From IMG/VR virus record IMGVR_UViG_3300031605_001661, positions 1 through 64,000 of that record: 64,000 bases of DNA. The stretch is one strand, 5' to 3'. Made by a program: the position numbers and the translations under genes. The notes under the pieces are model-generated. The model was not told the DNA's origin. It saw only the letters and a program-made list of their open reading frames with translations, and did no database searches. This stretch comes from a virus (taxonomy: Duplodnaviria; Caudoviricetes). Below, in pieces: positions 6,001 through 47,235 of this stretch; positions within the stretch are counted from its first letter, which is position 1, and every line of letters begins with the position of its first letter.

Positions 6001-9000
6001 TAGACTCAGGCGAAGCAATAAACCTTGAACCTGCTGCTGGTTCAGTAATCTTGTTAGATGGTACGATTAGCATAGATGCAGGCGTAGTAACTGGAGCAAC
6101 CTCAATAACCAGCACTGCTTTTGTCGGAGCTTTAACAGGAAACGCTGATACGGTAACCAATGGAGTTTATACATCTAACAATCTTTCGGTTATGGCCGCT
6201 ACTACTTCTGCTCAATTAGCAGGAGTAATATCAAACGAAACAGGTAGTGGAGCATTAGTCTTTGGCACTAGTCCAACATTAGTAACACCTGCGATAGGGA
6301 CGCCCGCATCTGGAAATCTTGCAAACTGCACGTTCCCCACTCTTAACCAAGACACAACAGGAACTGCGACTATTGCAACTACCGTAACCGTGGCCGACGA
6401 GTCTTCTGACACGACATGTTTTCCATTATTTGTCACCGCTGCGACTGGTAACTTAGGCCCAAAGTCTGGCACTAATCTAGCATTTAATTCTAGTAGTGGA
6501 GCGTTAACCGCAACATCTTTTGTGGGTGATATAACTGGTGACTTAACTGGCAACGCTGATACAGTAACAAACGGAGTTTATACTAGCAACAATCTTTCGG
6601 TCATGGCCGCTACAACTTCTGCGCAACTTGCAGGAGTAATATCGAACGAAACAGGAAGTGGAGCATTAGTCTTTGGCACTAGTCCTACTTTAGTAACACC
6701 GGCATTAGGGACACCCTCTGCATTAGTGGGAACTAACATAAGCGGAACTGCGGCAAATTTGACAGTAGGTGCAGTCACAAACGGTGTTTATACTACAGAT
6801 AGCGGAACTGTTAGCAACACGATGTTGGCCAATTCTTCCATTACTGTTAGTGATGGTTCAAATACTTCCCCAGTTGCTTTGGGGGGAACCATGACTTTTT
6901 CTGGGACGACCAATGAGGTTACTGTCGTTGAAGCGGCTGGCACAGTAACTATTGGGCTTCCAGATGATGTAACCATTGCAGGGGACTTAACTGTCAATGG
7001 AGATACCGTCACAGTTAATACGGCTACTCTTAGTGTTGAAGACCCGTTAATTATATTAGCCAGTGGAAACAACGGAGCCGACAGTGTTGATATTGGCTTC
7101 TACGGTCTTTATGACACCTCTGGCAGTCAGGATCTTTATGCGGGATTATTTAGAGACGCCAATGATTCCGGTAAGTTTAAGCTCTTCAAAGATCTACAGG
7201 CCGAACCAACTACTACAGTAAACACTTCTGGAACAGGTTATGCAAAAGCTACTTTAGTTGCGGATATAGAAGGAGCCTTAACTGGCAACGCTGATACAGT
7301 AACAAACGGAGTTTATACTAGCAACAATCTTTCGGTCATGGCCGCTACAACTTCTGCGCAACTTGCAGGAGTAATATCAGACGAAACAGGAAGTGGAGCA
7401 TTAGTCTTTGGCACTAGTCCTACTTTAGTAACACCTGCATTAGGGACACCCTCTGCATTAGTGGGAACTAACATAAGTGGAACTGCGGCAAGCTTGACAG
7501 CAGGGGCAGTGACAAACGGAGTTTATACTAGCAACAATCTTTCAGTCATGGCTGCTACTACTTCTGCTCAATTAGCAGGAGTAATATCAAACGAAACAGG
7601 AAGTGGAGCATTAGTCTTTGGCACCAGTCCGACATTAGTAACGCCTGTGCTAGGGACGCCCGCATCTGGAAATCTTGCAAACTGCACGTTCCCCACTCTT
7701 AACCAAGACACAACAGGAACTGCGACTATTGCGACCACCGTAACTGTAGCTGACGAGTCTTCCGATACGACATGTTTTCCATTATTTGTCACCGCTGTGA
7801 CTGGTAACTTAGGCCCAAAGTCTGGCACTAATCTAGCATTTAATTCTAGTAGTGGAGCGTTAACCGCAACATCTTTTGTGGGTGACATAACTGGCGACTT
7901 AACTGGCAACGCTAGTGGCACTGCTCTCACTGTTACACAAGCAGCCCAAACTGCCATTACTTCAGTAGGGACTCTGACCGCACTGGCTGTAGACAACATC
8001 GCCATTGATGGAAACACTATATCCTCAACAGCCGGAACAGACTTAAACATTACCCCTCTTGCCGGTCAGCAAATTGTCCTTGATGGTGCCATAGTTATAG
8101 ATGCTGGGGTTGTTACTGGGGCGACCTCGATAACCAGTACTGCTTTTGTCGGAGACATAACTGGCGATGTCACGGGTAATGCAAGTGGCACTGCCCTCAC
8201 TGTTACACAAGCGGCCCAAACTGCCATTACTTCAGTAGGGACTCTGACCGCACTGGCTGTAGACAACATCGCCATTGATGGAAACACTATATCCTCAACA
8301 GCCGGAACAGACTTAAACATTACCCCTCTTGCCGGTCAGCAAATTGTCCTTGATGGTGCCATAGTTATAGATGCGGGCGTTGTTACGGGAGCCACCTCAA
8401 TAACCAGTACAGCTTTTGTCGGAGACATAACTGGCGATGTTACAGGCAACGCAAGCGGTACTGCTCTCACTGTTACACAAGCAGCCCAAACTGCCATCAC
8501 TTCAGTAGGGACTCTGACCGCACTGGCTGTAGACAACATCACCATTGATGGAAACACTATATCCTCAACAGCCGGAACAGACTTAAACATTACCCCGCTT
8601 TCCGGTCAGCAAATTGTCCTTGATGGTGCCATAGTTATAGATGCTGGGGTTGTTACTGGGGCCACCTCAATAACCAGTACTGCTTTTGTCGGAGACATAA
8701 CTGGCGATGTCACGGGCAACGCTAGTGGCACTGCTCTCACTGTTACACAAGCAGCCCAAACTGCCATCACTTCAGTAGGAACTTTAGCAGGGCTTACAGT
8801 AGAGAAAAATGCTGGGTTGCTTGCAAGTTTCAAAAGAATAACTGGCGATGGCGCTGCTTATATTACTATTGACTCTTCTGCTGTCAATGATGATGAAGAT
8901 GCTCAACTTAGACTTAAGTCAGGAGTCGCTGGAAAGTGTCGAATCTATTTTGGAGACACTGCTGATTCCGATATAGGCCAGATTTGTTATGAGCATAGCG

Positions 9001-9395
9001 ATAATAGTCTAGGTATTAAAACCAATAACACAACGGCTATTTCAATTAGCAGTGCGCAGGTAACTACTTTTTCTAAAGCAACTAAACCCGCCCTTAAAGC
9101 CAACACAGACGGGACTACGGTTACCTTTGATGTGAATGAAGCAAACATGCATACAGTTACTCTGGGTGGCAATAGGACGTTTGCCATATCAAATGAAACA
9201 GCAGGTCAGAGATTCATAATTAGAATACTACAAGATGGAACAGGAAGTAGAACCGTGACGTGGTTTGGTACAATCAAATGGGCCGGAGGTTCTGCCCCTA
9301 CGTTAACTACAACAGCAAGCAAGGCAGATGTAGTTGGGTTTATTGTTACCGGAGCAGATACATACGATGGGTTTGTTGTAGGACAGAATGTATAA
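3..9395 (+). CDS. Giant modular repeat tail-fibre / virion fibre-like protein (5' truncated by window edge)
   Basis: The frame is open from position 3 (ATGRTIGMTGDVVW...), so the Met at 24 is probably internal. It is T/G/A/S-rich and built of recurring modules (VTNGVYTSNNLSVMAATTSAQLAGVISDETGSGALVFGTSPTLVTP; YVLPAADGSDGQQLTTDGDGTLSW). The C-terminal QDGTGSRTVTW...KWAGGSAPTLTT...D domain is typical of phage fibre tips. Confidence 0.8.
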   Translation, partial: ATGRTIGMTGDVVWTSASFTGSGDVTGTATIQANSVDGTMIALGSDAGGDIMYYDGTNYIRLAKGSNDQVLTLASGVPSWANASGGGASALNDLSDVTYSNGDLTISSLDTIVAGPLTVDSSENITLDADGGTIQFADAGVSLGAITSSGYSGNAASVTNGVYTTNNLSVMAATTSAQLAGVVSDKTGSGALVFATSPTLVTPALGTPASGNLANCTFPTLNQDTTGTATIATTVTVADESSDTTCFPLFVTAATGNLAPKSGTNLAFNSSTGILTATGFAGDITGDVTGNADTVTNGVYTTNNLSVMAATTSAQLAGVMSDETGSGALVFATSPTLVTPALGTPSALVGTNINGTAASLTVGAVNSSIQNAVELSPHGTSAGNTGEIRFLELAATGTNYVGFKAPDAIGTDDSQIYVLPAADGSDGQQLTTDGDGTLSWAAAATASGTPTTITVADTTDTSSFVALFESATGDLGPKTDAGITYNAGTGMLTATGLTGPLTGNATTVTNGVYTTNNLSVMAATTSAQLAGVISDETGSGALVFATSPTLVTPALGTPASGTLTNCTFPTLNQDTTGTATIATTVTVADESSDTTCFPVFVTAATGNLAPKSGTNLAFNSSTGILTATGFAGDITGDLTGNADTVTNGVYTSNNLSVMAATTSAQLAGVMSDETGSGALVFGTSPTLVTPALGTPSALVGTNISGTAASLTAGTVTNGVYTSNNLSVMAATTSAQLAGVISDETGSGALVFATSPTLVTPALGTPSALVGTNISGTAASLTVGAVNSSIQNAVELSPHGTSAGNTGEIRFLELAATGTNYVGFKAPDAIGTDDSQIYVLPAADGSDGQQLTTDGDGTLSWAAAATASGTPTTITVADTTDTSSFVALFESATGDLGPKTDAGITYNAGTGMLTATGLTGPLTGNATTVTNGVYTTNNLSVMAATTSAQLAGVISDETGSGALVFATSPTLVTPALGTPASGTLTNCTFPTLNQDTTGTATIATTVTVADESSDATCFPLFVTAATGNLAPKSGSNLAFNSSTGILTTTGFAGDITGDVTGNADTVTNGVYTSNNLSVMAATTSAQLAGVISDETGSGALVFGTSPTLVTPALGTPSALVGTNISGTAANLTAGAVTNGVYTSNNLSVMSATTSAQLAGVISDETGSGALVFGTSPTLVTPALGTPSALVGTNISGTAANLTAGAVNSSIQNAVELSPHGTSAGNTGEIRFLELAANGTNYVGFKAPDATAGQIYVLPAADGSDGQQLTTDGDGTLSWAAAATAAGTPTTITVADTTDTTAFVALFESATGDLGPKTDAGITYNAGTGTLSATAFSGPLTGNVTGNASGTALTVTQAAQTAITSVGTLTALAVDNISIDGNTISSTAGTDLNITPLSGQQIVLDGAIVIDAGVVTGATSITSTAFVGDLTGNADTVTNGVYTSNNLSVMAATTSAQLAGVISDETGSGALVFGTSPTLVTPALGTPASGTLTNCTFPTLNQNTTGTAAIATTITVADESSDATCFPVFVTAATGNLAPKSGTNLAFNSSTGILTATGFAGDITGDLTGNADTVTNGVYTSNNLSVMAATTSAQLAGVMSDETGSGALVFGTSPTLTTPALGTPSALVGTNISGTAASLTAGAVTNGVYTSNNISVMAATTSAQLAGVISDETGSGALVFGTSPTLVTPALGTPSALVGTNISGTAANLTVGAVNSSIQNAVELSPHGTSAGNTGEIRFLELAANGTNYVGFKAPDATDGQIYVLPAADGGDGQQLTTDGDGTLSWAAAATASGTPTTITVADTTDTSSFVALFESATGDLGPKTDAGITYNAGTGMLTATGLTGPLTGTASTATVATNFTVSANDSTNETVYPVFVDGATGSQGAETDTGLTYNPNSGTLTSAAFVGALTGNASGTAATVTGAAQTAITSLGDLTALTVDDVVIDGKVITMTGSADDTAVFTAGADGSLSIVTTDATADAANIQITADGMVDIDSAGALTLDSGEAINLEPAAGSVILLDGTISIDAGVVTGATSITSTAFVGALTGNADTVTNGVYTSNNLSVMAATTSAQLAGVISNETGSGALVFGTSPTLVTPAIGTPASGNLANCTFPTLNQDTTGTATIATTVTVADESSDTTCFPLFVTAATGNLGPKSGTNLAFNSSSGALTATSFVGDITGDLTGNADTVTNGVYTSNNLSVMAATTSAQLAGVISNETGSGALVFGTSPTLVTPALGTPSALVGTNISGTAANLTVGAVTNGVYTTDSGTVSNTMLANSSITVSDGSNTSPVALGGTMTFSGTTNEVTVVEAAGTVTIGLPDDVTIAGDLTVNGDTVTVNTATLSVEDPLIILASGNNGADSVDIGFYGLYDTSGSQDLYAGLFRDANDSGKFKLFKDLQAEPTTTVNTSGTGYAKATLVADIEGALTGNADTVTNGVYTSNNLSVMAATTSAQLAGVISDETGSGALVFGTSPTLVTPALGTPSALVGTNISGTAASLTAGAVTNGVYTSNNLSVMAATTSAQLAGVISNETGSGALVFGTSPTLVTPVLGTPASGNLANCTFPTLNQDTTGTATIATTVTVADESSDTTCFPLFVTAVTGNLGPKSGTNLAFNSSSGALTATSFVGDITGDLTGNASGTALTVTQAAQTAITSVGTLTALAVDNIAIDGNTISSTAGTDLNITPLAGQQIVLDGAIVIDAGVVTGATSITSTAFVGDITGDVTGNASGTALTVTQAAQTAITSVGTLTALAVDNIAIDGNTISSTAGTDLNITPLAGQQIVLDGAIVIDAGVVTGATSITSTAFVGDITGDVTGNASGTALTVTQAAQTAITSVGTLTALAVDNITIDGNTISSTAGTDLNITPLSGQQIVLDGAIVIDAGVVTGATSITSTAFVGDITGDVTGNASGTALTVTQAAQTAITSVGTLAGLTVEKNAGLLASFKRITGDGAAYITIDSSAVNDDEDAQLRLKSGVAGKCRIYFGDTADSDIGQICYEHSDNSLGIKTNNTTAISISSAQVTTFSKATKPALKANTDGTTVTFDVNEANMHTVTLGGNRTFAISNETAGQRFIIRILQDGTGSRTVTWFGTIKWAGGSAPTLTTTASKADVVGFIVTGADTYDGFVVGQNV
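900..3060 (+). repeat. Near-identical direct repeat, 1260-bp offset, within the fibre gene (ends approximate)
   Basis: Shadow ORFs 1201..1479/2461..2739 and 1250..1522/2510..2782 are identical at an offset of 1260; sequence lines 1081-1500 match 2341-2760. Confidence 0.9.
7885..8785 (+). repeat. 270-bp (90-aa) tandem repeat, about 3.3 copies
   Basis: The unit GDITGDVTGNASGTALTVTQAAQTAITSVGTLTALAVDNI...TAFV recurs with a period of 270 (shadow ORF ends 8066/8336/8606). A further single copy lies at about 4030-4290. Confidence 0.9.
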
Positions 9396-22761: not shown

Positions 22762-23201
22762 AAACGTTTTCGCAATGGTTTGGGAAAAAAGAAATAACGC
22801 CTGAAAGAACGGCGAAGCGTGATGAATTAGGGTTCTGGTCTGATAATCCAAATGACCCACAATGGCTTAAGCATAACAAAACAAGTATTACGGCCAAATA
22901 CAGTACTGTCATTATACCAATCGAACATGTTGAAAGACTGCCCGGTCAAAATGATGAACATAAAAATGTAATACCAGAAAAATACGACCACTGGAAAGAA
23001 GTCTTGAAAAATGACCCTGAAGTTCTTTACAAGAACCCCATTCAAGTAAATGTTTTCCACAATGGAGAAACCAAAATCAATGAAGGGAATCATAGAATGC
23101 GAGCAGCAAAAGATCTAGGCATCAAAACTATTGCTGTAAGCATTCACTACTTCGGAGGGTCAGAAACAAATCCAAATTCGTTTGACCCAGCAAATCTATG
23201 A
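22758..23201 (+). CDS. ParB/Srx-like domain protein with targeting leader (MKTFSQWF)
   Basis: NPIQV...INEGNHRMRAAKDLG motif. Confidence 0.75.
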   Translation: MKTFSQWFGKKEITPERTAKRDELGFWSDNPNDPQWLKHNKTSITAKYSTVIIPIEHVERLPGQNDEHKNVIPEKYDHWKEVLKNDPEVLYKNPIQVNVFHNGETKINEGNHRMRAAKDLGIKTIAVSIHYFGGSETNPNSFDPANL

Positions 23202-24019
23202 ACATATTTGAACTCATTCCTAAAAAACTTGTTAAAAAAATATCGGAACAATACATCGCAGGAGATTCTTTTGCAGACGCAGAGAGTGTTGTAAAATATT
23301 TAAATAAAGAAAACATCTACGGAATATACGATTTACTAGGAGAATCAAATAAAGAGGCAAGAGACAATCTAGAAAAATATTTAGAAGTCATAGACTTATC
23401 GAAAAATACAAAATCATCTCTATCTGTCAAATTAACAAACATTGGAATACTTAAAGGATATTGGAAGTGTAGAGATAACTTGCTTGAGATTGCGTCTGCT
23501 TGTGATAAAGAAAAAAAGCAAATCACCGTGGATATGGAAGATGCAAAATACACAGAAAGAACACTGGTTTTAATTAAAGAAATAAATGAAAAATATCCAG
23601 TTGGTTGTGTTTTACAAGCCAATTTGAAAAGAAGTTTAATCGATGCAAGGGATCTTAAAAATATACATGTGCGAGTATGTAAAGGATCATATAGAGAAAA
23701 TAAGAATGTGGCTTTTAGAGGGACGAATATACTTACAAATTTTGCAAGAGTAGTTGAAAAATTAATAAAAAACAATTGCCAAGTTGCGGTAGCTACGCAC
23801 GATTTAAGATTAGCTAAAAGATGGTTTGGTCAAGATGTAGACTATCAATTTTTATTTGGAGTAAAGCATGTGCGACCATTTATAAATGAAGTCAAATACA
23901 AACACAAAACATCAATTTATGTTCCTTTTGGGGATAGCTGGTATGCGTACTCATTAAGAAGATTTAAAGAAAATCCATTATTGGCAATAACAGTTTTAAA
24001 AAACTTATTTAGATTTTAA
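23198..24019 (+). CDS. Monofunctional proline dehydrogenase
   Basis: YIAG, DLLGE, SVKLT, DMED, LQANL.R, RVCKGSY.E, ATHD, QFLFG, YVPFG.SWY.Y..RR..E. Confidence 0.9.
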   Translation: MNIFELIPKKLVKKISEQYIAGDSFADAESVVKYLNKENIYGIYDLLGESNKEARDNLEKYLEVIDLSKNTKSSLSVKLTNIGILKGYWKCRDNLLEIASACDKEKKQITVDMEDAKYTERTLVLIKEINEKYPVGCVLQANLKRSLIDARDLKNIHVRVCKGSYRENKNVAFRGTNILTNFARVVEKLIKNNCQVAVATHDLRLAKRWFGQDVDYQFLFGVKHVRPFINEVKYKHKTSIYVPFGDSWYAYSLRRFKENPLLAITVLKNLFRF

Positions 24020-24797
24020 TAGTAAGACACTTGCAAGCACCGCCTGCAAGAATGAATTGATCCATATCTACATCAAATACAATCATCCCTAAATCTTCAA
24101 GTATCTTTCTAGTTTCGTTACAACCTGATGGGATTATAACTTGGTTATCTATCACAACGGCATTGCAAGCAAATTTCTTTGCATCTTTTTTGGGAACCTC
24201 ATGCAGTTCAATTTCTTTGGACATTGCTTCTAAAGAAATTGAACTGAAAGCTTTGGGATAAACAATTGCATGGCCATTTCCCAAAGGACAAAAACAAGTA
24301 TCCAAATGATAGAAGTAATCATCAACTAAGTGGCAGAAAACTAAGTTGTCTATTTCCAAAACCTTACATATCGTGCCATAAGCCTCTTTGTCAGTTCTTA
24401 TGCCATAACCCGCAAAAAGAGTTTCCCCTTCAAACAAAGCATCCCCTGCCCCCTCACAGCTAATCTCTGGGTGTACTTCGTAGACTTGATACCCTTCATT
24501 TTTAAACCACCTTTTAAAGTGCTCTTTTTCACCTTGTCTCTCTTTATGTCGAAAATTAGAAGGTAAAAAAGTATCCCCCTTTAATATGCCTGCATTTGCT
24601 GTAAACACCATGTCGGGAAGAATGGAAGAAGGGCTTAAATGATGTATCTTGGCCTTACATTTAGAAATGACTGCTTTAAGTTTGTCCCATTGGCGATTTG
24701 CTTTAGCCAAACTAGGTGGTTTTTCAACATCCATCCATGGGTTTATCTCATAAGAAACCCCATAAAAAGTTGGTTTGCATAGGAGAAATTTTGTCAT
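24009..24797 (-). CDS. Amidinotransferase superfamily enzyme (arginine dihydrolase / DDAH-like)
   Basis: YEINPWM, PDMVFTANAG, ER.GE, EGAGD, YHLDTCFCPL, FACNAV, GGACKCLT. Confidence 0.9.
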   Translation of the reverse strand: MTKFLLCKPTFYGVSYEINPWMDVEKPPSLAKANRQWDKLKAVISKCKAKIHHLSPSSILPDMVFTANAGILKGDTFLPSNFRHKERQGEKEHFKRWFKNEGYQVYEVHPEISCEGAGDALFEGETLFAGYGIRTDKEAYGTICKVLEIDNLVFCHLVDDYFYHLDTCFCPLGNGHAIVYPKAFSSISLEAMSKEIELHEVPKKDAKKFACNAVVIDNQVIIPSGCNETRKILEDLGMIVFDVDMDQFILAGGACKCLTIKI

Positions 24798-25075
24798 ATT
24801 ATTTTATCTATTAATTCAGATACTGTTTGCTTTCCCTTGTCGAGTATTTCAATAATATCATTATATTTATTCAGGTCATCATCCTTGATATCAGTTAAAA
24901 TGCCTAAATTCTTAATCTTTCTTTTAGTATCAGTATCAATATTATTTACATGAAAATTAAGTCTATCCTTTTCCGAATCACCTAAAAAGTCCAATAATCC
25001 AAGAATGGTGTCTTTTACCACCTTTTTATCTTCCAGCCACAATTTATTTTCTAACCAAGATTCGAATGATTTCAT
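24794..25075 (-). CDS. Small protein with targeting leader (MKSFESWLE)
   Basis: Start reassigned to ATG 25075, which avoids overlap with the divergent ORF at 25109. Confidence 0.6.
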   Translation of the reverse strand: MKSFESWLENKLWLEDKKVVKDTILGLLDFLGDSEKDRLNFHVNNIDTDTKRKIKNLGILTDIKDDDLNKYNDIIEILDKGKQTVSELIDKII

Positions 25076-25108
25076 AAAATATATACGATCCAAACAATAA
25101 ATAATGTT

Positions 25109-25882
25109 ATGAGATATAAAGACTTTATGGAATGGAAAGACATATTCGGGTTTGAATCTAAGCCAAAAGTTCAACAAAAAGAACCTAAAGCAAAGACTCC
25201 AACTCGCAAGTTTGATGTTGAAGGTATGTGTCAATACCTGTCCGAACAGAAACTAGGGGAAAAAGTTCCTTCTTTGAAATTTGTAGATGTCGTGCAATGG
25301 GGGGAAGGCGAAGGATCTATAAAAATAAGATTAGGCACAGGAATCAATGTGTTTATTGAACGTTTATCCCATGACCTGCAAGGTTCTCCACATTGGTTAG
25401 CAAAAAAAGTATATCAAATAAACAGAGAAGGCTACGGGGGTTTTGAAACTTATGTTGCTAAAGAACTCATGTCAGAAGTGCTAAAAATTAATGAGAAAAA
25501 ATTAGATGCTCCTAATAACAAATGGGAGAATATGGAAAAACTCATTGTCGATATGGCAAATAGACTAAGGTCGGTAGCAAGATCAATATTTATCTTCGAA
25601 GGGGTTCATAAACTAAAAGACAACCATTATGTGATTTGTTTTTCAGTTAGAGGTCATGGAGTAGAAGCACCAGACCACAAAAGGGTGATACAAAATCAAA
25701 CTGACGTAGTGTTTGAAGAAGATTCTGGGCTACTTAAAATTGTCAATACAAATATTGAAGTAGGAGTAGGATCGGGGAACCAGTGGGAGATCATGCCCGC
25801 AGATAGCATCACAAGATTTGCCCCAACTCAAAGCAATGACGAAATAATAGAGACTATAGCAACAGTTTTGAAATATTATTGA
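25109..25882 (+). CDS. Hypothetical protein (leader-like N-terminus MRYKDFMEW)
   Basis: 257-aa ORF; ATAAATA 5 nt upstream. Confidence 0.65.
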   Translation: MRYKDFMEWKDIFGFESKPKVQQKEPKAKTPTRKFDVEGMCQYLSEQKLGEKVPSLKFVDVVQWGEGEGSIKIRLGTGINVFIERLSHDLQGSPHWLAKKVYQINREGYGGFETYVAKELMSEVLKINEKKLDAPNNKWENMEKLIVDMANRLRSVARSIFIFEGVHKLKDNHYVICFSVRGHGVEAPDHKRVIQNQTDVVFEEDSGLLKIVNTNIEVGVGSGNQWEIMPADSITRFAPTQSNDEIIETIATVLKYY

Positions 25883-25890
25883 GAATCGAA

Positions 25891-26271
25891 ATGAACTTTT
25901 TCCAATTAAATGAAATGATGAATGAAGACTCTTGCTGGGTTTGCAAAAACAAACTCAGTCACGGGAAGTTCGTTGTCAACATTTTCAGTTTGCACGACGA
26001 TGGACTGAAACCTTTGGAGATTGCACAAAAATTAAGCATCAGCAAACAACATGTATATGAAATTCTCAATCAGAATGGCCATCGTCAAAAATCATTGAAA
26101 AGAAGCAAAGCAATGAAAGAAATGCATGCTTCCAAAAAAAAAAGTAAATTAGTGGCAAGCTGTTGTGGGAAACCTCTCGGAGATGACATTAAAACATGTT
26201 GTCCAGGATGTCCCGGAGGAATGACGCTTATGCCAAAAATTGATTATATAAAAATTAAAATTCGTAACTAA
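25891..26271 (+). CDS. HTH- and Cys-motif-containing protein
   Basis: GLKPLEIAQKLSISKQHVYEIL helix-turn-helix; CxxC and CC..CPGC; N-terminus MNFFQLNE. Confidence 0.6.
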   Translation: MNFFQLNEMMNEDSCWVCKNKLSHGKFVVNIFSLHDDGLKPLEIAQKLSISKQHVYEILNQNGHRQKSLKRSKAMKEMHASKKKSKLVASCCGKPLGDDIKTCCPGCPGGMTLMPKIDYIKIKIRN

Positions 26272-26941
26272 ACAAAGACCTGTACTCTTCATCTACAGTC
26301 CCCGTAATGCCCCCAGAGTAAAACGGGATGTTAAAGTTGACCTTAGATTCGTCTTTGAAGTATTTCTTCATCAGAGGAGATAACACGGCATAATACGGAC
26401 TTACTTTCCCCTGTATCAGCCATCGTGTCATTGTGCGATTTTCAATTGCTTCAATGACATCTTCCTTTTTAAGGTCATTTTCAAATATTCTCAATAAGAA
26501 GTTTTTTGTTTTCTCTAATTCTCTTATTGTGTGCGAATCTTTATGAGATTTTATGCCCGCCTCTTTAGTGTTTGAAGCTAGTGCTTTTTTATCGTATCTC
26601 TTTTTCCAAACCAACCATCTTTTCCATGCTTTTTCTCCAACAATTGCATTTGGAGTTATCATCGCATTGACTTGACCGTCTGTAATTGTCTTTAAAACAT
26701 CAAGCTGGGCTTTTATATAAAGTTTATACTCATCGTCATCTAAAAGTCCTTTAGTTTCTTTAATGAGCTTATAGCAATAACGAAATAATGCTGATTTCCT
26801 TGGATCGCCTTTTTTAACCCGCATATGATTATAGTCAGGAAAAATTTCTTTAGAAAGTTTCATCCATAGAATTCCAATTTTAACTGCTTTAGCCTCAATT
26901 GGAGTCATGTTGTGTTCTACAATTGCATCCAAACGCCACAT
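26255..26941 (-). CDS. Conserved-looking phage hypothetical protein
   Basis: 228-aa ORF with GGAG RBS; no motif recognised with confidence. Confidence 0.6.
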   Translation of the reverse strand: MWRLDAIVEHNMTPIEAKAVKIGILWMKLSKEIFPDYNHMRVKKGDPRKSALFRYCYKLIKETKGLLDDDEYKLYIKAQLDVLKTITDGQVNAMITPNAIVGEKAWKRWLVWKKRYDKKALASNTKEAGIKSHKDSHTIRELEKTKNFLLRIFENDLKKEDVIEAIENRTMTRWLIQGKVSPYYAVLSPLMKKYFKDESKVNFNIPFYSGGITGTVDEEYRSLFSYEF

Positions 26942-26972
26942 ATATCACTCCTTTAACTTACCTTTAACTTAT

Positions 26973-28265
26973 CTATTTCTTTTTCCAACCTTCTAACAAA
27001 ATTCTCAAGGCATTTCCACCTAAAAACTTTTCAACAACATCGTCACTATAGTCTAAACCCTTTAAATAACAAGTTAATCTGGGCAATTCAGACATATCAA
27101 CTATTTCATCTGGAGGGTCAGTAAAACCGTCTAAATCTGTTCCAAGAGCAGGTGTTTCTGACCCGCAAACATTTATGATGTGATTTAGCGTCTGTTCTAT
27201 GTATTTTAAACCCAAACCACTGTCCACAGGGGAAGTCCAATAATTCATAAATATTATTCCTGCCACGCAACCATGATCGGCAAGCCATTTGAATTCCCAA
27301 TCTTGGATATTATAAGTAACTCTGTTTATTTCAAAACATCCTACATGTGTAGCGATAAGACAATTTTCACAATTATTAGAATCGACTATGTCATATATTT
27401 GTTTTCTTGCTGCCAATGTGCAATGGGAAATATCTATTAACATCCCTAGCTCAAGCATTTTTTCTACTACTTTAATTCCAATGGGAGTTAAACCCTTGGT
27501 TTCATCCCATTTCCCTAATATTTTTCTCCATTTTAGATGCTTGGCACCATATTCTGGGTATGGGAAAACTGGGTTGGCACATTGATTAGGATAAAAATGT
27601 GCCAGAGTTAGATAAGCAACGCCTCTATTAAAGAAATGTTCTAAATTAGATAATATTTCCGTTTCAACTTCGGGAGAATCATTCCAACCATTAGTGCCGG
27701 GTATCTTTCCAGCAAGTGAATCTTGCAAACTATGTGCTCCTTCGATGGAATGAACCACACACATATCACCACTGTTAATCCCTTCTTGCAGTTTATCGCT
27801 AGAGGTCACAAGTCTTGCTAAACGTGTTTTTTGTAGGTCGTTCTCATCTACTCCTGAAAAATCCTCCCACTTTATTTGGATTGCTTTAGTTTTTTTATTA
27901 TATTGGTCAATTTGTTTCTTCATCTCATCTAGCATAATGTTTGTGGCATCAAAGTAAGTGGGATCGACTACTTTTTTACGAGCACCAGGGGCTATTTTAA
28001 ATAACCATTTAATTAAAGATATATCGTCTATCCAACCTTGTTCTAAGACATACGCTGTAGATAAAAGCACATCCATGCCTCCCGCTTCCATCTTTGGGAA
28101 AGTGACTCTTCCGCTAAAGGGCCAAAATTTTTCCTTAAAAAATCGTTGAAGGAATTTACCTGTCGTGGAACTTAAATTTCTATGAAATACAGTTGATTTA
28201 AGGGCAGGATGAGTATGGAGATCGACAACTGTTGTCTTATGATGTAAGTCGTTCCAGTCAGACAT
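26973..28265 (-). CDS. Membrane (renal-type) dipeptidase, peptidase M19
   Basis: VDLHTH, SIEGAH, YLTLAH, GLT..G, IDISH, ATH, YNIQD, LGTDLDG, KFLGGN. Confidence 0.88.
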   Translation of the reverse strand: MSDWNDLHHKTTVVDLHTHPALKSTVFHRNLSSTTGKFLQRFFKEKFWPFSGRVTFPKMEAGGMDVLLSTAYVLEQGWIDDISLIKWLFKIAPGARKKVVDPTYFDATNIMLDEMKKQIDQYNKKTKAIQIKWEDFSGVDENDLQKTRLARLVTSSDKLQEGINSGDMCVVHSIEGAHSLQDSLAGKIPGTNGWNDSPEVETEILSNLEHFFNRGVAYLTLAHFYPNQCANPVFPYPEYGAKHLKWRKILGKWDETKGLTPIGIKVVEKMLELGMLIDISHCTLAARKQIYDIVDSNNCENCLIATHVGCFEINRVTYNIQDWEFKWLADHGCVAGIIFMNYWTSPVDSGLGLKYIEQTLNHIINVCGSETPALGTDLDGFTDPPDEIVDMSELPRLTCYLKGLDYSDDVVEKFLGGNALRILLEGWKKK

Positions 28266-28389
28266 AATAGGCCTCGCATTTTAAAATAAATTATTTGACT
28301 AGACATGTTTTAAATTATTTTATAATATTGTCAATGTAACTTTGGAGAACCAAACTAAACTAAGGCTGGACTAATAAAAAACAAAACCC

Positions 28390-28700
28390 ACTGCGTTATC
28401 GCTCTAAACAAGGAATACTAACACACAACCAACAGCCGTCCTTACGATGACGGCAGGGAAAGAACTTTGGCCTGTACCCGCTAAATGCCTTTCTTGTTAA
28501 AAACTCTAGGTGGCCGGTTATCAACCGGAACCAGACAGGGCTTTCAACTGGCCCTGATCCCTCCGCCGACCGAGAATAAGAGTCCGCTATAGTCTGAGAT
28601 TAAGCCGAAACGGGTCAACATTAATTTGTTGTGAATTTTGTCTTCTGAAGTAATGAGTACGAAGACTAAAGGCTATAGTTAGAAGTTCTCAATAGGTGCA
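28390..28700 (+). ncRNA. Candidate structured non-coding RNA, unassigned family
   Basis: GC-enriched stems in an ORF-free gap: 28435-40/28449-54, 28514-19/28523-28, 28536-41/28551-56, 28640-45/28661-66; long-range 28586-94/28671-79 and 28572-77/28685-90. Confidence 0.5.
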
Positions 28701-28980
28701 CTGAATTAGTATATTTAAGTTTTTTGATTGTTGATCAATATTATTGAAGGAAAGTTTATGTTGAATAACTTATTGAATGAAAGAATGAAGAGTAATGATC
28801 TTTGTTCTTCTTATTCTTGTTATTCAATAGTAAAAGATAATTATCTTATCTTTTCTTCTTCTAACAGTGTTATATCTCTTACTGTTTAAGATATTCTCTT
28901 ACTGTTTAGTTAATATTGATTAAATGAAATAATCATTTAACCCATGGGGCGTTGTGTGCGCTGAAAAAATAGGATTAAAT
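28600..28980. other. Candidate replication origin (AT-rich hairpins, direct repeat, strand-skew switch)
   Basis: The + strand appears A/C-rich to the left and G/T-rich to the right regardless of gene orientation (judged by eye). Inverted repeats at 28771-28829 and 28832-28854; direct repeat TCTCTTACTGTTTA at 28875 and 28895. Confidence 0.5.
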
Positions 28981-28982
28981 AG

Positions 28983-29011
28983 TTGCAAAGTCTTTTGTTC
29001 TGATCTACAAT
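28983..29011 (+). promoter_or_regulatory. Sigma70-like promoter for the polymerase operon
   Basis: TTGCAA-17 nt-TACAAT. Confidence 0.55.
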
Positions 29012-29046
29012 CTTGATGTAATACTTGTTTTTATATTTGATGGTCT

Positions 29047-30339
29047 ATGGACATAGAAAAATTATCTAAGATATCTCAAGACAAGGAAGCCTTGTTCTTG
29101 TTCTCCCCTAGCTATCTGGATTTCACCAGCAAGGGGGGTGTTGTTTTTTATGTTATTGGGAAATCTGATTATGTTGAAATCAAAGTTGATAAGAAAAATG
29201 CATTTACGGTTTTTTCCTACCTGAAGCAGTCCATTTTCAAACCGGAAAAACTTGTTTATTGCTGGGGGATAAAGAGCTTTTTTAGTTATGTTTTAGCTAT
29301 TTCTGGCAAGGCATTTAGTACGGAAGCAGTCATTCTCGATTTGAAGGTTTTAGAGTCTTTTTTGGATTGTAAAGGCCAAGTTCCCAAAGGCATGGCAGAA
29401 TGCAAGACAAGAATCCGATTTATGATGGGTAATAAATCGTGGCAAAATCTTCAGGAAGTCTATAAAAAAATACATTTGCCATTAATAAATAAAACACTGC
29501 CTGGGATAGAGACTGTTGGCCTTATCAACAAAGAACTTCGCAGAGAAGTTTTTCCCACCTACCAAATTGAAGGCCAATTGAACGGACGATTACTTTGTTC
29601 GAAAGTTCTAGAAGACAGTTTCAACCCTCACACCTTGAGCAAGGAAGACAAACTCAATCTTTGCTCACGCCAACCTAATGATCTGTTTTTACATTTTGAT
29701 TATCGACATATGGAAGTAAGTGTGCTTCAGTGGTTATCTGGAGATGCGGTGCTTGGTGACATGATTAATTCAGGGGAGGATTTGTATAGTTCTATATTTA
29801 AAAAGATATTTGGAGTTGAATGCGAAACCAGTAAGCAAAGAAAGCTGTGTAAAAGTTTTTTCTTGCCTGTTGTATATGGTTTGTCCAAGAATGCTTTGTC
29901 AAAGAAACTGGGCGTTTCGATAAGCATGGCCGACCACATTTACAATGGTATTTGCCGCCATTTCAAAACTGCAATATCTTGGGTAGAACAACGCCAAACC
30001 TGTATAGCGGATGTCTCAATAGATTATTTTGGTCGGAACCGAATTTTTAAAGAGAAAAAATATCGTGCTAGAAACTTTGCCATCCAAGCGCCTGCATCTT
30101 TAGTTTGCCTTGATAAACTTATAAAGCTTTATGATTTGTTAGAATCGTCCGATGCGGAAGTTGTCTTTCATGTACATGATGCTTTTGTTATATTGGCACG
30201 ACCATTAGGCGTCACCAGTCTGTGTAAGGATATTAAAATTCTTTTAGAGGAGAATTGTGAAATGTATGATGGATTAAAATTGACGACTGAATGTCGAGTT
30301 GGCAATCGACTTGTAGAGTTAAATAATTTAAAAATTTAG
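29047..30339 (+). CDS. Compact family-A DNA polymerase
   Basis: NGRL (TGRL-like), motif A FDYRHMEVSVL, DLY, motif B RKLCKSFFLPVVYG, FGRNR, NFAIQAPAS, motif C HVHDAF. Confidence 0.85.
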   Translation: MDIEKLSKISQDKEALFLFSPSYLDFTSKGGVVFYVIGKSDYVEIKVDKKNAFTVFSYLKQSIFKPEKLVYCWGIKSFFSYVLAISGKAFSTEAVILDLKVLESFLDCKGQVPKGMAECKTRIRFMMGNKSWQNLQEVYKKIHLPLINKTLPGIETVGLINKELRREVFPTYQIEGQLNGRLLCSKVLEDSFNPHTLSKEDKLNLCSRQPNDLFLHFDYRHMEVSVLQWLSGDAVLGDMINSGEDLYSSIFKKIFGVECETSKQRKLCKSFFLPVVYGLSKNALSKKLGVSISMADHIYNGICRHFKTAISWVEQRQTCIADVSIDYFGRNRIFKEKKYRARNFAIQAPASLVCLDKLIKLYDLLESSDAEVVFHVHDAFVILARPLGVTSLCKDIKILLEENCEMYDGLKLTTECRVGNRLVELNNLKI

Positions 30340-30350
30340 AGAGGAGACAT

Positions 30351-30917
30351 ATGAAGTCCATATTTGAAAGTTTTCCTGTTACGGAGACCGAATATAGTGA
30401 ATTAGATGAGAAATTTGGAAACTTGGCGCATTATGCGGCATGGCAGCTTGTAAAAAAAAACCTAAATAACAACTACACGGATGATGTTGATGATATTTCT
30501 CAAGAGTTAAGATTGTCTATGGTACGAGCCGGATCATATTACAAGAGACAAGTTTATATTGAATCTTGTTTAAGGTGCGCAAAAGATTATGTTAAAGACG
30601 GGTTTGTTTCTACCGTTGTTGAGGAATTACAGTATTTGTGGGATAATCGTACTCGCCACGGCGCAAACCGTCAAAAGTTTGGCCCTTTCCAAGAAATATT
30701 GTTAGACAAAATTGTTAAAGAGGTTGTCCCACTTAATGTAAGGCCTTCTAAAACACAGAAACTTAAGATCGATACTAAGTTTTCAACTTATTGCAAAGCA
30801 ATTGCTTGGAATACTCAAAAGTCAATGGGCAAGAAAATAACTAAAGAAAAGGCAATTAGATCGGGGCAGGTGAGTTTATCTGAGTTCAGTTATTTGGGTG
30901 CCGGGGAGACACTTTAG
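30351..30917 (+). CDS. Putative sigma-factor region-2-like protein
   Basis: DDVDDISQELRLSM and KFSTYCKAIAWN resemble ECF sigma region 2 (DAEDLVQE; F.TY...I..N); GAGGAG RBS. Confidence 0.4.
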   Translation: MKSIFESFPVTETEYSELDEKFGNLAHYAAWQLVKKNLNNNYTDDVDDISQELRLSMVRAGSYYKRQVYIESCLRCAKDYVKDGFVSTVVEELQYLWDNRTRHGANRQKFGPFQEILLDKIVKEVVPLNVRPSKTQKLKIDTKFSTYCKAIAWNTQKSMGKKITKEKAIRSGQVSLSEFSYLGAGETL

Positions 30918-45684: not shown

Positions 45685-47235
45685 ATGCCGATTAAGGATT
45701 GTTTTAGTTGTTGTGAGTGTGATTGTTGTTCCATCGAATGCGAGGGAGTGTGCACATGGGTTTATCGATGCGAGGAATGTCAGTGCAACGGTAGTTGCGA
45801 ATGGGTTTGGACACCATGCGGCGAGCCAATCCCAGAGTCAATCGGACTACTAAGTGAGTGTGAAGATGGCACATGGACACAAAACAGTACGTGCTCTCAG
45901 TGCCCTGGATGCTCATGTACACCGTTCGACTCATATACATGGGGCACACCTGGCGTTGATGTGCCAGATGCTGCGACCATTCCCCAGACGTATACCGGAA
46001 CACCCGGATCAGCCGGTGGTTGTGGTGGTGGATATTACGTAGGCGTGCACGCAACGTCCCACTCTGATCCATACGTTCCCGGTGGGGAAGAAGATTGCTA
46101 TTGGGAGCTTACATCTGATTGTGGGGAAAGTAATAATTCCGGTTGCCAATGTGCCAGCAGAACATGCGAATGGACGTGGGAAGTTTCTGAGGAAGAGTGC
46201 CATCAATGCTCATGTACTGTTGCCGAAGAGGTATGGGGCACACCTGGCGTTGATCCTGCACCCATCATCAACAATGAAATCAATGTTCAGACGTTTACCG
46301 GAACATGTGGTGGTGGCGGGGAATGTCAGTGCGACGGTAGTTGCGAATGGGTTTGGACACCATGCTACGGGCGGCCTAATTGTACCTATGGCACATGGGC
46401 ACTCGACAGTACGTGCTATCCAATCATTACTCCTGCAACTTGGACTCAGACAAGTGATTGTGGTTGTGATAATTGTGATTGCCCCGAACCGTCAGGTCAG
46501 GGTTCTCCTATTCCTGGCGGACCTGTCGTGACGATGACAACTCATTGCTCTGGCACAGGTACATCGGGGGGTGCGGGGCCAACGGTTGATTGCGATTGTG
46601 ATATTCCGATTGCAGTTCTCGGTTCGTGCGGCACCGGAACATGTGAATATACACACACGACCGACCCCGACACGGCGGTAGTGACTTATATCTTAGACAG
46701 CGACGACTGTGAACCTGGATGTGGTTGTCCAGATGCTGCCGACGTTTACGACACTAGCGCCCCCTGTCAGGATTCCAATGCTACTGGTTATGAAGATGGA
46801 GAAACAGCGACAACTCCTTGCTATGGTGGCGACTGCGACACATCTAATGCTTCTTGTTGTGGAAGCGGCGATTGCATGTATACCTGGAGTGGCGGTGCGT
46901 GGAATGTTGATACGGACACTTGCAGTGCAGCGTGCGAAGATCCAGATGTGCTATGTGAATGCCACGAGCCAACTTACCCTGGCGGAGTGGATAACGAAGC
47001 AGGCAACGGGACTTGTATGCCTGTCGCTACTACTGCGGCGTTATCTAATAGGACTTTTGGGCTTGTCAATAAGATTCCCCAGATTAGGAATAGTCGTGAG
47101 GGAATCAGGGATTCCTCAGTGGTTAAGGTCACCAGAAAAGGAGTTTCTAAAGTTTATTTGAATGTAAAAGCTATTAAAAGAAAAAGGCAAGCGATGGCCC
47201 GAAATGTAGCCGGTAGAAGACAGAGGATGAGATGA
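45685..47235 (+). CDS. Cysteine-rich repeat protein with basic C-terminal tail
   Basis: About 57 Cys (hand count); repeated ECQC(N/D)GSCEWVWTPC and WGTPGVD; GC-rich DNA relative to the flanks. Confidence 0.75.
   Translation: MPIKDCFSCCECDCCSIECEGVCTWVYRCEECQCNGSCEWVWTPCGEPIPESIGLLSECEDGTWTQNSTCSQCPGCSCTPFDSYTWGTPGVDVPDAATIPQTYTGTPGSAGGCGGGYYVGVHATSHSDPYVPGGEEDCYWELTSDCGESNNSGCQCASRTCEWTWEVSEEECHQCSCTVAEEVWGTPGVDPAPIINNEINVQTFTGTCGGGGECQCDGSCEWVWTPCYGRPNCTYGTWALDSTCYPIITPATWTQTSDCGCDNCDCPEPSGQGSPIPGGPVVTMTTHCSGTGTSGGAGPTVDCDCDIPIAVLGSCGTGTCEYTHTTDPDTAVVTYILDSDDCEPGCGCPDAADVYDTSAPCQDSNATGYEDGETATTPCYGGDCDTSNASCCGSGDCMYTWSGGAWNVDTDTCSAACEDPDVLCECHEPTYPGGVDNEAGNGTCMPVATTAALSNRTFGLVNKIPQIRNSREGIRDSSVVKVTRKGVSKVYLNVKAIKRKRQAMARNVAGRRQRMR

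Follow-up and report, generated by a model that had tools for sequence, protein, structure and literature searches.

What function is encoded in the gap upstream of a DNA polymerase gene in a marine huge phage, where a GC-rich stretch lacks protein-coding capacity? The record of this phage covers 95 kb and is 19% complete by CheckV; the window analyzed here is a stretch of 64 kb. The first-pass annotation had described positions 28390-28700 as an ORF-free, GC-enriched island and had read it as a new phage ncRNA, possibly a folded primer at a replication origin. There is good support for a structured, non-coding RNA of ~590 nt, encoded on the + strand from ~28335/28354 to 28941, with the island as its GC-rich core. 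The span given at first is too narrow for this RNA. The reading as a new phage ncRNA was borne out and extended, as the RNA is transcribed, folds, matches no Rfam family, and has a covarying family upstream of genes for family A DNA polymerases (PolA). Such an RNA upstream of huge-phage PolA was not described in the literature searched. Candidate structured RNAs in IMG/VR have been catalogued (PMC10690425); the words "polymerase," "jumbo," and "huge" are absent from the main text of that catalogue, and its supplementary tables may list the family as an unnamed candidate.

Locus and Transcript

The RNA gene lies between an oppositely oriented gene for a 228-aa protein and a small PolA gene in the same orientation as the RNA. 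The gap that contains it (28266-29046, 781 nt) is bordered by an ORF for an M19 dipeptidase-like protein on the - strand (26973-28265; Pfam Peptidase_M19, E 2.2e-42) and by the PolA gene on the + strand (29047-30339). PolA has 430 aa, matches Pfam DNA_pol_A at residues 206-421 (E 1.5e-22), and consists of the polymerase domain only, with no exonuclease. In total, 117 PolA homologues were found, the full-length ones being mostly 415-545 aa long. GC content is 0.41-0.49 across 28325-28700 versus 0.21-0.30 in the flanks, and 0.21-0.27 in the AT-rich stretch at 28625-28925 of the window lineage. Within 28390-28700, ORFs of at least 40 aa are limited to one on the - strand, a TTG frame of 42 aa; both the GC enrichment and the lack of ORFs were therefore confirmed.

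The 228-aa protein is all-alpha and is encoded at 26255-26941 on the - strand. It is 30-46% identical to the products of the divergent genes upstream of the gap in 10 other loci. In those loci the homologue directly borders the gap, whereas in the window lineage the dipeptidase gene separates it from the RNA. No match to this protein was found in Pfam, PHROG, or among PDB sequences. Its AF2 model (pLDDT 84) could be aligned with T4 gp59 (1c1k_A) over 170 residues with a VIA-align Z of 5.4 and an rmsd of 5.7, and a "DNA helicase loader" was found at rank 10 in BFVD (TM 0.43, E 1.4). As a weak lead, the modeled fold suggests that the protein may be a gp59-like helicase loader.

Transcription of the island, on which the first-pass annotation had made its reading depend, was found in assembled contigs of four metatranscriptome runs with four study codes, three of which have year and habitat in common and may represent one campaign. 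Contigs start at 28355 in runs X9 and X15 and at 28354 in run X18, and they end at 28941 in X9 and X15; a single X9 contig spans 28355-28816. The transcribed RNA thus covers 28354-28941 (~588 nt), with a primary 5' end that may be located ~20 nt further upstream, although assembled contigs cannot reveal the strand, the level, or the true ends of an RNA. Because the contigs carry no strand information, we infer the + strand from the G-U pairs of the fold. No RNA contigs were found for 27953-28303 and 28942-29436 in the four runs, and such a contig gap proves nothing about silence.

A consensus scan, the only source for this element, gave a candidate promoter for the RNA, TAGACA-17-TAATAT (28300-28328, + strand; 9/12 matches), which would place the transcription start near 28335. 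Both of its hexamers are unchanged in the relative L002. The TATAAT box pointed out in the first-pass annotation is present at 28321-26; it reads TCTAAT in L002, whereas the overlapping TAGACA-17-TAATAT is kept there. Between the RNA and PolA, the same kind of scan gave a candidate PolA promoter, TTGCAA-17-TACAAT (28983-29011, + strand), both hexamers of which are kept in all four relatives. Bacteroidota-type promoter boxes, TAACTTTG at 28337-44 and TATATTTG at 29033-40, were set aside because the sigma-70-like promoters fit and are conserved. Just past the 3' end of the RNA, a box CCCATGGGGCGTTGTGTGCGCTG (28942-28965) is invariant in the four close relatives. Comparison by eye showed a box of similar type, AACC...TATGCGC, after the RNA in L055, L027, L047, and L018.

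Fold in the Window Lineage

Three close relatives, 87-97% identical to the window, retain the fold, and most of the changes are G-U changes valid only for the + strand. The consensus of these four sequences contains 86 pairs with 98.8% of cells paired (4/344 unpaired), and one-sided switches to G-U or Watson-Crick pairs account for 15 additional pair types. Both long-range stems named at first, GCUAUAGUC (28586-94) with GGCUAUAGU (28671-79) and GAGAAU (28572-77) with GUUCUC (28685-90), are present together with the local hairpins in the MFE fold and in both consensus folds.

Folding energy gave a different result. A value like that of shuffled controls had been named in advance as an argument against the RNA, and formally such a value was found for the island: z = -1.39 on the + strand, where 8/100 shuffles fold as well, and z = -0.17 on the - strand. 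The window-only MFE structure has fewer substitutions at paired positions (0.074 vs. 0.121, p 0.009). The pair is preserved in just 20 of 41 such substitutions, and the pair-breaking ones are found mainly in MFE helices unused by the consensus fold.

The RNA comprises three domains. The 5' domain (28355-28499) contains an A/C-rich stretch followed by hairpins H1 (28435-40 / 28449-54) and H2 (28456-62 / 28489-95), the latter with GUACCCG in its loop. Variation in H1 and H2 is limited to G-U or Watson-Crick switches, pair 130/167 being represented by GU, GC, and AU. A similar loop motif, GUAYCCC, was found in family members of subtype B.

The conserved core (28500-28682, + strand) is the region matched by the family model R3. 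It consists of helix P1 (ACU 28503-05 / AGU 28581-83), helix P2 (GGUGG 28509-13 / CCGCC 28563-67), hairpin H3 (CCGGUU/AACCGG, 28514-19 / 28523-28) followed by AACC, hairpin H4 (CAGGGCU/GGCCCUG, 28536-42 / 28550-56), and helix P5, formed by the GCUAUAGUC/GGCUAUAGU stem. P5 encloses three hairpins (28604-15, 28616-31, 28640-66), with AGUUAG after it. The GAGAAU/GUUCUC stem is an outer helix specific to this lineage, with a change from U-G to U-A in L118 and L002.

The AT-rich 3' domain (28719-28941, + strand) is bounded by a closing helix (28719-43 / 28911-41), the outermost pair of which ends at 28941, where the contigs end as well. It also contains a long hairpin (28771-28829). Among the close relatives, two pairs of this domain have changes on both sides: a full compensatory change from U-A to G-C was found at 28739/28915 in L002, and pair 28778/28813 is represented by U-A, U-G, and C-G. 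A small + strand frame within the domain (28758-28889, 43 codons from ATG) is probably not a gene, its ATG being ATT in L118 and L002. Past the internal ATG of this frame, a hand count gave ~8 amino-acid-changing versus 2 silent differences, and the differences are located in the hairpin arms.

An RNA Family Upstream of Huge-Phage PolA

Searches with the window lineage alone were confined to that lineage. The gap had no blastn match in GenBank phages, and nhmmer and blastn searches of 80 PolA loci with the island found the same lineage only. Models R1 and R2, built from the four close sequences, had no match among 79 loci of PolA homologues. In 35 whole huge-phage records, R1 gave a single row, a 22-nt fragment with 11.8 bits and E 0.78, and thus no real match. 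An initial motif scan returned 34 stretches, with a real one only at a known relative.

Other huge phages, whose PolA homologues are 32-41% identical, have at the same place a gap of 550-810 nt with no ORF; such gaps were found in many of 59 distinct PolA-upstream regions, including 18 representative loci. These gaps contain a structured RNA family with subtypes A and B. In eight subtype A sequences, double changes were found in 18/31 predicted pairs. In the model-fitted alignment, 88.2% of cells pair, compared with 35-51% when the partner is slid, and both-sided changes affect 21/29 pairs, while shuffles had a mean of 12.0 (sd 2.0) and none of 500 reached as high. Thus, the covariation test that had been proposed for regions upstream of polA homologues is positive. 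In subtype B, double changes were found in 9/23 pairs. Crossing helices at the same positions, forming a pseudoknot inside P5, are the top solution in 7/10 subtype A sequences. The version of P1 in R3, AACC/GGUU, probably has the wrong partner, because subtype B pairs the 5' AACYU with the ARGU motif.

The family is tightly linked to PolA. R3 matches were found in 8/36 whole records, one per record and every one at the PolA locus. Huge phages with genomes of ~0.5 Mb keep the RNA in a single copy, at the head of the replication module. PolA is located 395-501 nt downstream on the same strand in 15/16 R3-confirmed motif hits, the 16th having no downstream sequence, and 421-565 nt downstream in 23/32 subtype B motif hits. 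Some members of the PolA clade have neither gap nor RNA upstream (L059, L060, L010, and GenBank LR756511.1). In the last of these, a huge phage, coding sequence is found directly upstream of a PolA homologue (34% identical). The phages with family members, none of which is known in culture, range in GC content from ~0.30 to 0.57, L018 and L069 being examples of GC-rich members.

The relation of the window RNA to this family was assessed with R3, a covariance model built from eight subtype A sequences with the window lineage left out. R3 found a full-length, syntenic match at 28500-28682, yet a weak one of 14.0 bits; its E-value depends on the space searched, from 0.21 for 709 kb through 0.018 for the window to 2.3e-4 for the 781-nt gap alone. 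Once filters are switched off, it is outscored by a junk match of 25 nt elsewhere in the window (57376-57400), leaving it at rank 2. In the three close relatives, R3 scored 14.5-16.8 bits at the homologous place. The helix layout of the window core is common to 16 strong R3 members, in which the order is AAAACY, P1, P2 enclosing H3, AACC, and H4, then the RGU motif, P5, and RGUUAG; the elements given above for the window follow it. The switch from C-G to U-A in P1 agrees with subtype B. The position in an ORF-free gap just upstream of a short PolA on the same strand agrees as well, and so does the divergent 228-aa homologue upstream, but with the dipeptidase gene in between. The best crossing pair in the window, on the other hand, was no better than in shuffles (23/100 as good), so that the family pseudoknot is not significant there. 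The GGGURRGUCUU motif, conserved in the family in or after H3, is absent from the window, where H3 has a short AUC loop; because of this missing motif, the lineage is regarded as a divergent variant. The window RNA is probably a divergent member of the RNA family upstream of huge-phage PolA.

Possible Roles and Comparison With Known Systems

The replication genes of five records were checked. PolB was found in none of them, a single PolA in all five, Pol III alpha in four, including the record of the window, and RNase HI in only one. Genes downstream of the RNA encode gp32-like, RecA/UvsX-like, and DnaB-like proteins. With each record turned so that the RNA is on the + strand, cumulative GC skew reaches its record-wide minimum at most 1 kb from the RNA in 3/6 records (G015, G029, and G025), 4 kb from it in G017, and 18 kb from it in G005 (459 kb, 91% complete), a genome with a nearly monotonic rise in skew. 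The record that contains the window has its global minimum at 8 kb and only a local one at 27-28 kb. The skew minima coincide with coding-strand switches, which could create them without an origin. Across the family, the stretch downstream of the core is not consistently more AT-rich than the locus average.

Taken as a whole, the best explanation, favored at somewhat less than an even chance, is a structured family RNA that primes replication in the manner of ColE1. Under this explanation, the RNA locus would be at or beside a replication origin. The RNA would fold during its synthesis, its 3' part remaining on the template as an RNA-DNA hybrid, and its 3' end, at the conserved box past 28941, would be extended by the adjacent Pol I-like PolA. 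The Pol III alpha-type replicase of the phage would then take over, following the logic of ColE1 RNA II. By itself, a primer or R-loop role at an origin is plausible, at about the same or slightly lower confidence. In its favor are the presence of Pol III alpha next to an exonuclease-less PolA, the direction of the RNA toward PolA, and the skew minima on the locus; the distant minimum in G005, the scarcity of RNase HI, and the PolA clade members with no RNA upstream argue against it. A more specific version is doubtful: here an ornate origin RNA of ~600 nt, common to huge phages with Pol III-type replicases, would use its pseudoknotted fold to set the 3' end for leading-strand initiation by the minimal Pol I, and the gp59-like neighbor would load the helicase on the displaced strand. 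If this version were true, the RNA would represent a viral replication origin specified by RNA structure as well as a new class of large functional RNA.

Nearly as probable as priming is that the RNA stands alone, as an RNP scaffold, a ribozyme-like RNA, or a regulator that is merely encoded in the replication block and primes nothing; it may then work with the 228-aa neighbor or with PolA. Its complex covarying fold, with multi-helix junctions, a pseudoknot in most subtype A sequences, and three domains, is characteristic of RNAs whose shape determines their action. The discrete RNA ends and the separate predicted promoter of PolA also agree with this. R-loop origins of T4 require no specific RNA sequence (PMC3016281), so that a conserved pseudoknotted fold exceeds the apparent need of a primer. 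However, a purely trans-acting RNA would need neither the strict position and orientation relative to PolA nor the GC-skew minimum found on the locus in half of the six records, and neither a partner nor a catalytic motif was identified.

A long cis-regulatory leader of the PolA or replication operon, which might, for instance, control read-through or translation by binding a replication protein, is improbable. The core always shares its strand with PolA and precedes the PolA start by 395-565 nt, and autogenous control of gp32 via upstream RNA structures is known in phage, as mentioned in the main text of the IMG/VR catalogue (PMC10690425). Against this, a conserved candidate promoter separates the RNA from PolA, two runs have contigs that stop at the end of the closing helix, and an RNA of ~590 nt with multiple closed domains far exceeds known operators in size.

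Far less credible is a DNA-level element, such as origin repeats or protein-binding sites, with inverted repeats that merely resemble RNA helices. Direct repeats (28875-88, 28895-908) as well as inverted repeats do occur in the divergent intergenic region, and the G-C change at 28739/28915 would equally preserve a DNA inverted repeat; but G-U occurs at many pairs in one sequence or another and would become A-C on the complementary strand or in a cruciform, the region occurs in RNA libraries, and in L002 the direct repeats do not stay identical.

Some large known RNA classes occur in huge phages, and the RNA is comparable to them in size and complexity; nevertheless, a diverged tmRNA, RNase P, group I/II intron, GOLLD, ROOL, or HEARO RNA missed by the models is very improbable, as the Rfam search recommended at the outset gave no match at gathering score with Rfam 15 in the 64-kb window or in 18 family loci, ARAGORN found no tRNA or tmRNA in the window, and + strand flanking exons are absent. 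In E-value mode, Rfam 15 returned only chance-level rows for the window (E ≥ 3.7), and an miRNA was the sole row with E ≤ 1 for eight family loci. These results agree with the initial statement that the island is not a tRNA, tmRNA, RNase P, SRP RNA, or intron.

Few large RNAs have a strongly conserved structure, and those known are mostly central machines or still puzzles. For the RNA described here, a fixed partner (the minimal Pol I), a fixed orientation, and defined ends in ocean metatranscriptomes make the function directly testable. If it specifies or primes an origin, it would explain how replication of half-megabase phage genomes starts and would carry the ColE1 principle beyond small plasmids, into viruses. 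If it is unrelated to an origin, it would still be a new covarying multi-domain RNA family absent from Rfam 15.

The closest functional parallel to the favored priming role is ColE1. There, RNA II forms a persistent RNA-DNA hybrid at the origin, is cut by RNase H, and is extended by Pol I, and the antisense RNA I controls folding of the primer. Like RNA II, the phage RNA is a folded transcript of several hundred nt with its own candidate promoter; it is directed at a site that would allow its extension by a Pol I-type polymerase, in a genome with a Pol III-type replicase that could take over. Unlike RNA II, to which it has no sequence or model similarity, the phage RNA has a much more elaborate fold, which includes a pseudoknot as well as three domains and is kept by phages very distant from one another. 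The likeness is drawn from genomic context and contigs, the hybrid in the phage being hypothetical.

The origins oriF and oriG of T4 offer a second parallel. As in T4, a candidate promoter is followed by a transcript that would enter an AT-rich stretch in the window lineage, with genes for gp32-like, UvsX/RecA-like, and helicase proteins nearby and a neighbor with a weak gp59-like fold match. In contrast to the T4 origins, which span ~100 bp and have R-loops independent of specific sequence (PMC3016281), the phage structure of ~590 nt is conserved.

In its architecture, the phage RNA resembles GOLLD and ROOL, Rfam families of unknown function, which are likewise large, ornate, covarying phage RNAs in environmental sequence. 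It differs from them in matching no Rfam 15 model and in having a fixed partner, PolA, in a fixed orientation.

Genomic context of the PolA-upstream gap

The window covers the initial 64 kb of an IMG/VR virus record of 95,283 bp, the completeness of which was estimated by CheckV at 19%. Homologues of its family A DNA polymerase (PolA) were found on contigs as long as 572 kb; the record thus represents only part of a huge-phage genome, about half a megabase in size. Sequencing runs in which the locus occurs are metagenomes of marine or seawater origin.

The RNA region is located in a 781-nt gap without ORFs between the genes for an M19-dipeptidase-like protein (26973–28265, − strand) and PolA (430 aa; 29047–30339, + strand). 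Genes for a DnaB-like helicase, a gp32-like single-strand-binding protein, and a RecA/UvsX-like protein were found downstream of PolA; a 188-aa ORF between PolA and the helicase gene (30351–30917) has no match in Pfam or PHROG. Upstream of the gap, the replication module adjoins a run of metabolic genes (23198–28265), including proline-dehydrogenase-like (23198–24019) and DDAH-like (24009–24797, − strand) genes. The M19-dipeptidase-like gene separates the window RNA from its usual neighbor gene, encoding a 228-aa protein. Elsewhere in the window, positions 24–9395 form a single ORF of 3,123 aa (GC about 0.47 vs. 0.38 for the record), and a 1-kb stretch of GC 0.525 (46001–47000; genome 0.38) lies within the ORF at 45685–47235.

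Expression and fold of the window RNA

The GC-enriched island reported at 28390–28700 by the first-pass annotation was confirmed, GC being 0.41–0.49 across 28325–28700 vs. 0.21–0.30 in the flanks, and the stems named there are present in both the minimum-free-energy and consensus folds. No match to a known RNA class was found: ARAGORN found no tRNA or tmRNA in the window, and Rfam 15 gave zero matches at gathering score across the entire window and only chance-level rows (E at least 3.7) in E-value mode. The folding energy of the island is formally like that of shuffled controls (+ strand, z = −1.39; − strand, z = −0.17), which counts against the proposed structure; therefore, the case for an RNA rests on comparison and expression.

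Sequence words of the stretch were found in six RNA runs, and contigs of four aligned to the locus; these have four study codes, three with a common year and habitat, maybe from one campaign. Contigs start at 28355 (runs X9 and X15), 28354 (X18), and 28379 (X17); one X9 contig spans 28355–28816, and in both X9 and X15 contigs end at 28941, the matching ends being a weak hint. Contigs show neither strand, level, nor true ends. The X18 contigs bear variant letters of the type of L117, a close relative. Additionally, the 3′ two-thirds of PolA (29436–30216) are covered in all four runs, with no contig over its first 390 nt; contig gaps prove nothing.

The TATAAT box noted in the first-pass annotation is not kept in the relative L002, unlike a candidate promoter TAGACA-17 nt-TAATAT (28300–28328). 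The latter predicts a start near 28335; on that basis, the contig starts at 28354/55 may reflect RNA processing or the limit of the assembly. A candidate PolA promoter, TTGCAA-17 nt-TACAAT (28983–29011), is kept in all four sequences of the lineage. TAACTTTG (28337–28344) and TATATTTG (29033–29040), located just before the observed 5′ end of the RNA and the PolA start codon, respectively, fit TAnnTTTG, a box of Bacteroidota promoters, and are a possible hint to the host.

The same gap was found on three further contigs: L117 and L118 from metagenomes (96.7 and 90.5% identity over 3.5 kb) and L002 from IMG/VR (86.6% over 3.5 kb). Together, the four sequences give a consensus fold of 86 pairs, with standard pairing in 98.8% of 344 cells (4 unpaired) and 15 additional pair types, all from one-sided G-U or Watson-Crick switches; it was fitted to the same alignment that scores it, and formal covariation measures are powerless at such divergence. 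The + strand is favored as the likelier RNA strand, because its G-U pairs read as A-C on the opposite one. In a less biased test, for which only the window sequence was folded, substitutions were rarer at paired than at unpaired positions (0.074 vs. 0.121 per site, p 0.009), yet of the 41 that hit paired positions, just 20 kept the pair. Pair-breaking substitutions cluster in helices that the consensus fold replaces. Thus, the lineage by itself gives suggestive rather than strong evidence for the fold.

In these sequences, a conserved fold was also predicted for the AT-rich stretch on the right side of the island. The predicted closing helix of this 3′ domain (28719–43/28911–41, + strand) contains a full compensatory change in L002 (28739/28915, U-A to G-C), and the last base of its outermost pair is exactly 28941, where the X9 and X15 contigs end. 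In the long hairpin (28771–28829, + strand), pair 28778/28813 is U-A, U-G, or C-G. A 43-codon frame in this stretch was rejected as a gene and is read as non-coding, its ATG being lost in two of four sequences and its changes being mostly amino-acid-changing. The 3′ domain also contains two exact 14-nt copies of TCTCTTACTGTTTA (28875–28888 and 28895–28908), 20 nt apart; both are altered in L002 and are therefore unlikely to be iterons. Overall, it is very likely that this locus yields a structured + strand transcript of about 590 nt.

A wider family of PolA-upstream RNAs

In the PolA-homologue loci, neither sequence searches nor models based on the four close sequences gave a match. A profile of PolA homologues yielded 80 loci, 59 with distinct upstream regions. 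Many have an ORF-free gap of 550–810 nt upstream of PolA, and in 10 loci the divergent gene beyond it is 30–46% identical to window ORF 26255–26941. The gaps are similar at the nucleotide level within subgroups, though the PolAs are just 32–41% identical to that of the window. Motifs and helix order are common to these gaps and the window: an A-rich run closing with AAAACY, helix P2 around two hairpins with AACC between them, an RGGU motif, helix P5 around a candidate pseudoknot, and RGUUAG. The window RNA has no GGGURRGUCUU motif.

In subtype A (8 sequences), 18 of 31 predicted pairs have both-sided changes. A covariance model, R3, was built from these sequences with the window lineage left out. 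Among 83 sources, it gave 16 strong matches. It also matched the window (28500–28682) and, at the homologous position, each of the three relatives; these matches are full length yet score only 14–17 bits. On the window alone, the match at 28500–28682 comes second to a 25-nt junk match; restricted to the gap, its E-value is 2.3e-4. In the model-fitted alignment, 88.2% of cells pair vs. 35–51% with the partner slid. The covariation sought for the proposed RNA was found at this level: 21 of 29 pairs changed on both sides (shuffle mean 12.0, sd 2.0), a count reached in 0 of 500 shuffles. In subtype B, double changes were found in 9 of 23 pairs, and the ARGU motif pairs with 5′ AACYU (U-A in four sequences, C-G in four); window ACU 28503–05 and AGU 28581–83 are consistent with this pairing. 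Crossing helices at the same positions, in differing sequences, ranked first in 7 of 10 subtype A members, whereas those of the window, by the same script, were no better than shuffles.

R3 was found as a single copy in 8 of 36 whole records, each time at the PolA locus. When IMG/VR was scanned for the subtype A motif, 35 stretches were found, 16 of them R3-confirmed; PolA lies 395–501 nt downstream on the same strand in 15 of these, the last having no room for it. The 19 stretches unconfirmed by R3 have no PolA downstream. For subtype B, 23 of 32 stretches have PolA 421–565 nt downstream. The gap is absent from some members of the clade: in L059, L060, L010, and GenBank LR756511.1, coding sequence runs right up to PolA. 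A conserved box of the AACC...TATGCGC type directly follows the RNA in the window (28942–28965), with equivalents in L018, L027, L047, and L055 and a different box, CTAAGTCGGCACTCGG, at this position in subtype B. The conserved box may act as an operator or terminator, or mark an RNA-DNA transition site.

Rfam searches gave nothing at gathering score in 18 family loci and nothing in E-value mode in 8. Neither the literature searched nor the main text of the catalogue of structured RNAs in IMG/VR (PMC10690425) gave a prior description; the supplementary tables of the latter may list the family as an unnamed candidate. The window RNA is accordingly regarded as divergent but belonging to a real family of structured RNAs that has so far escaped cataloguing, its pseudoknot in the window being unconfirmed; membership in the PolA-upstream family is likely. 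The first-pass proposal of a new phage ncRNA is supported as to transcription, structure, and novelty, while its extent of 28390–28700 gives way to about 590 nt.

Possible role in replication

PolA was found once in each of five records, and no family B polymerase was found in any of them. Pol III alpha was found in four, in split form; in the record of the window, the pieces (PF07733) lie beyond the window at 68601–68876 and 72090–72584, in frames of 449 and 846 aa, and the same split was found in G005, G012, and G013, which points to a phage replicase gene that is fragmented or interrupted. Since Pol III alpha is also encoded, PolA, which is a Pol I-like accessory enzyme and lacks exonuclease domains, is probably not the main replicase.

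Tentatively, the RNA would serve as a pre-primer that PolA extends when replication is initiated. With the RNA on the + strand, the cumulative GC-skew minimum of the whole record lies less than 1 kb from it in G015, G029, and G025, 4 kb away in G017, and 18 kb away in the 459-kb G005; the record of the window has just a local minimum at the locus. These minima coincide with coding-strand switches, and transcription alone could produce them. The 228-aa neighbor (26255–26941) has a confident all-alpha predicted fold (pLDDT 84), the sole whole-length structural match of which is the T4 helicase loader gp59 (weak, Z 5.4); a phage "helicase loader" ranks tenth in BFVD, and sequence searches give no support for this likeness. 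RNase HI was found in only one of five records; a host RNase H enzyme could serve instead.

In T4, the helicase is loaded faster on origin R-loops when gp59 is present, leading-strand synthesis is primed by R-loop RNA, and the origin R-loop is independent of specific sequence (PMC3016281). This independence cuts against a simple primer here, where the family RNA has an elaborate conserved fold. Such a fold suggests an RNA acting through its shape, either by directing hybrid formation as in ColE1 or in a non-priming role; the latter is nearly as plausible as the pre-primer. A cis-regulatory leader is unlikely. For the pre-primer reading, a parallel is found at ColE1 origins, which have the same division of labor between a Pol I-like accessory enzyme and a separate main replicase; these phages are alike in encoding a Pol I-like accessory enzyme beside another replicase.
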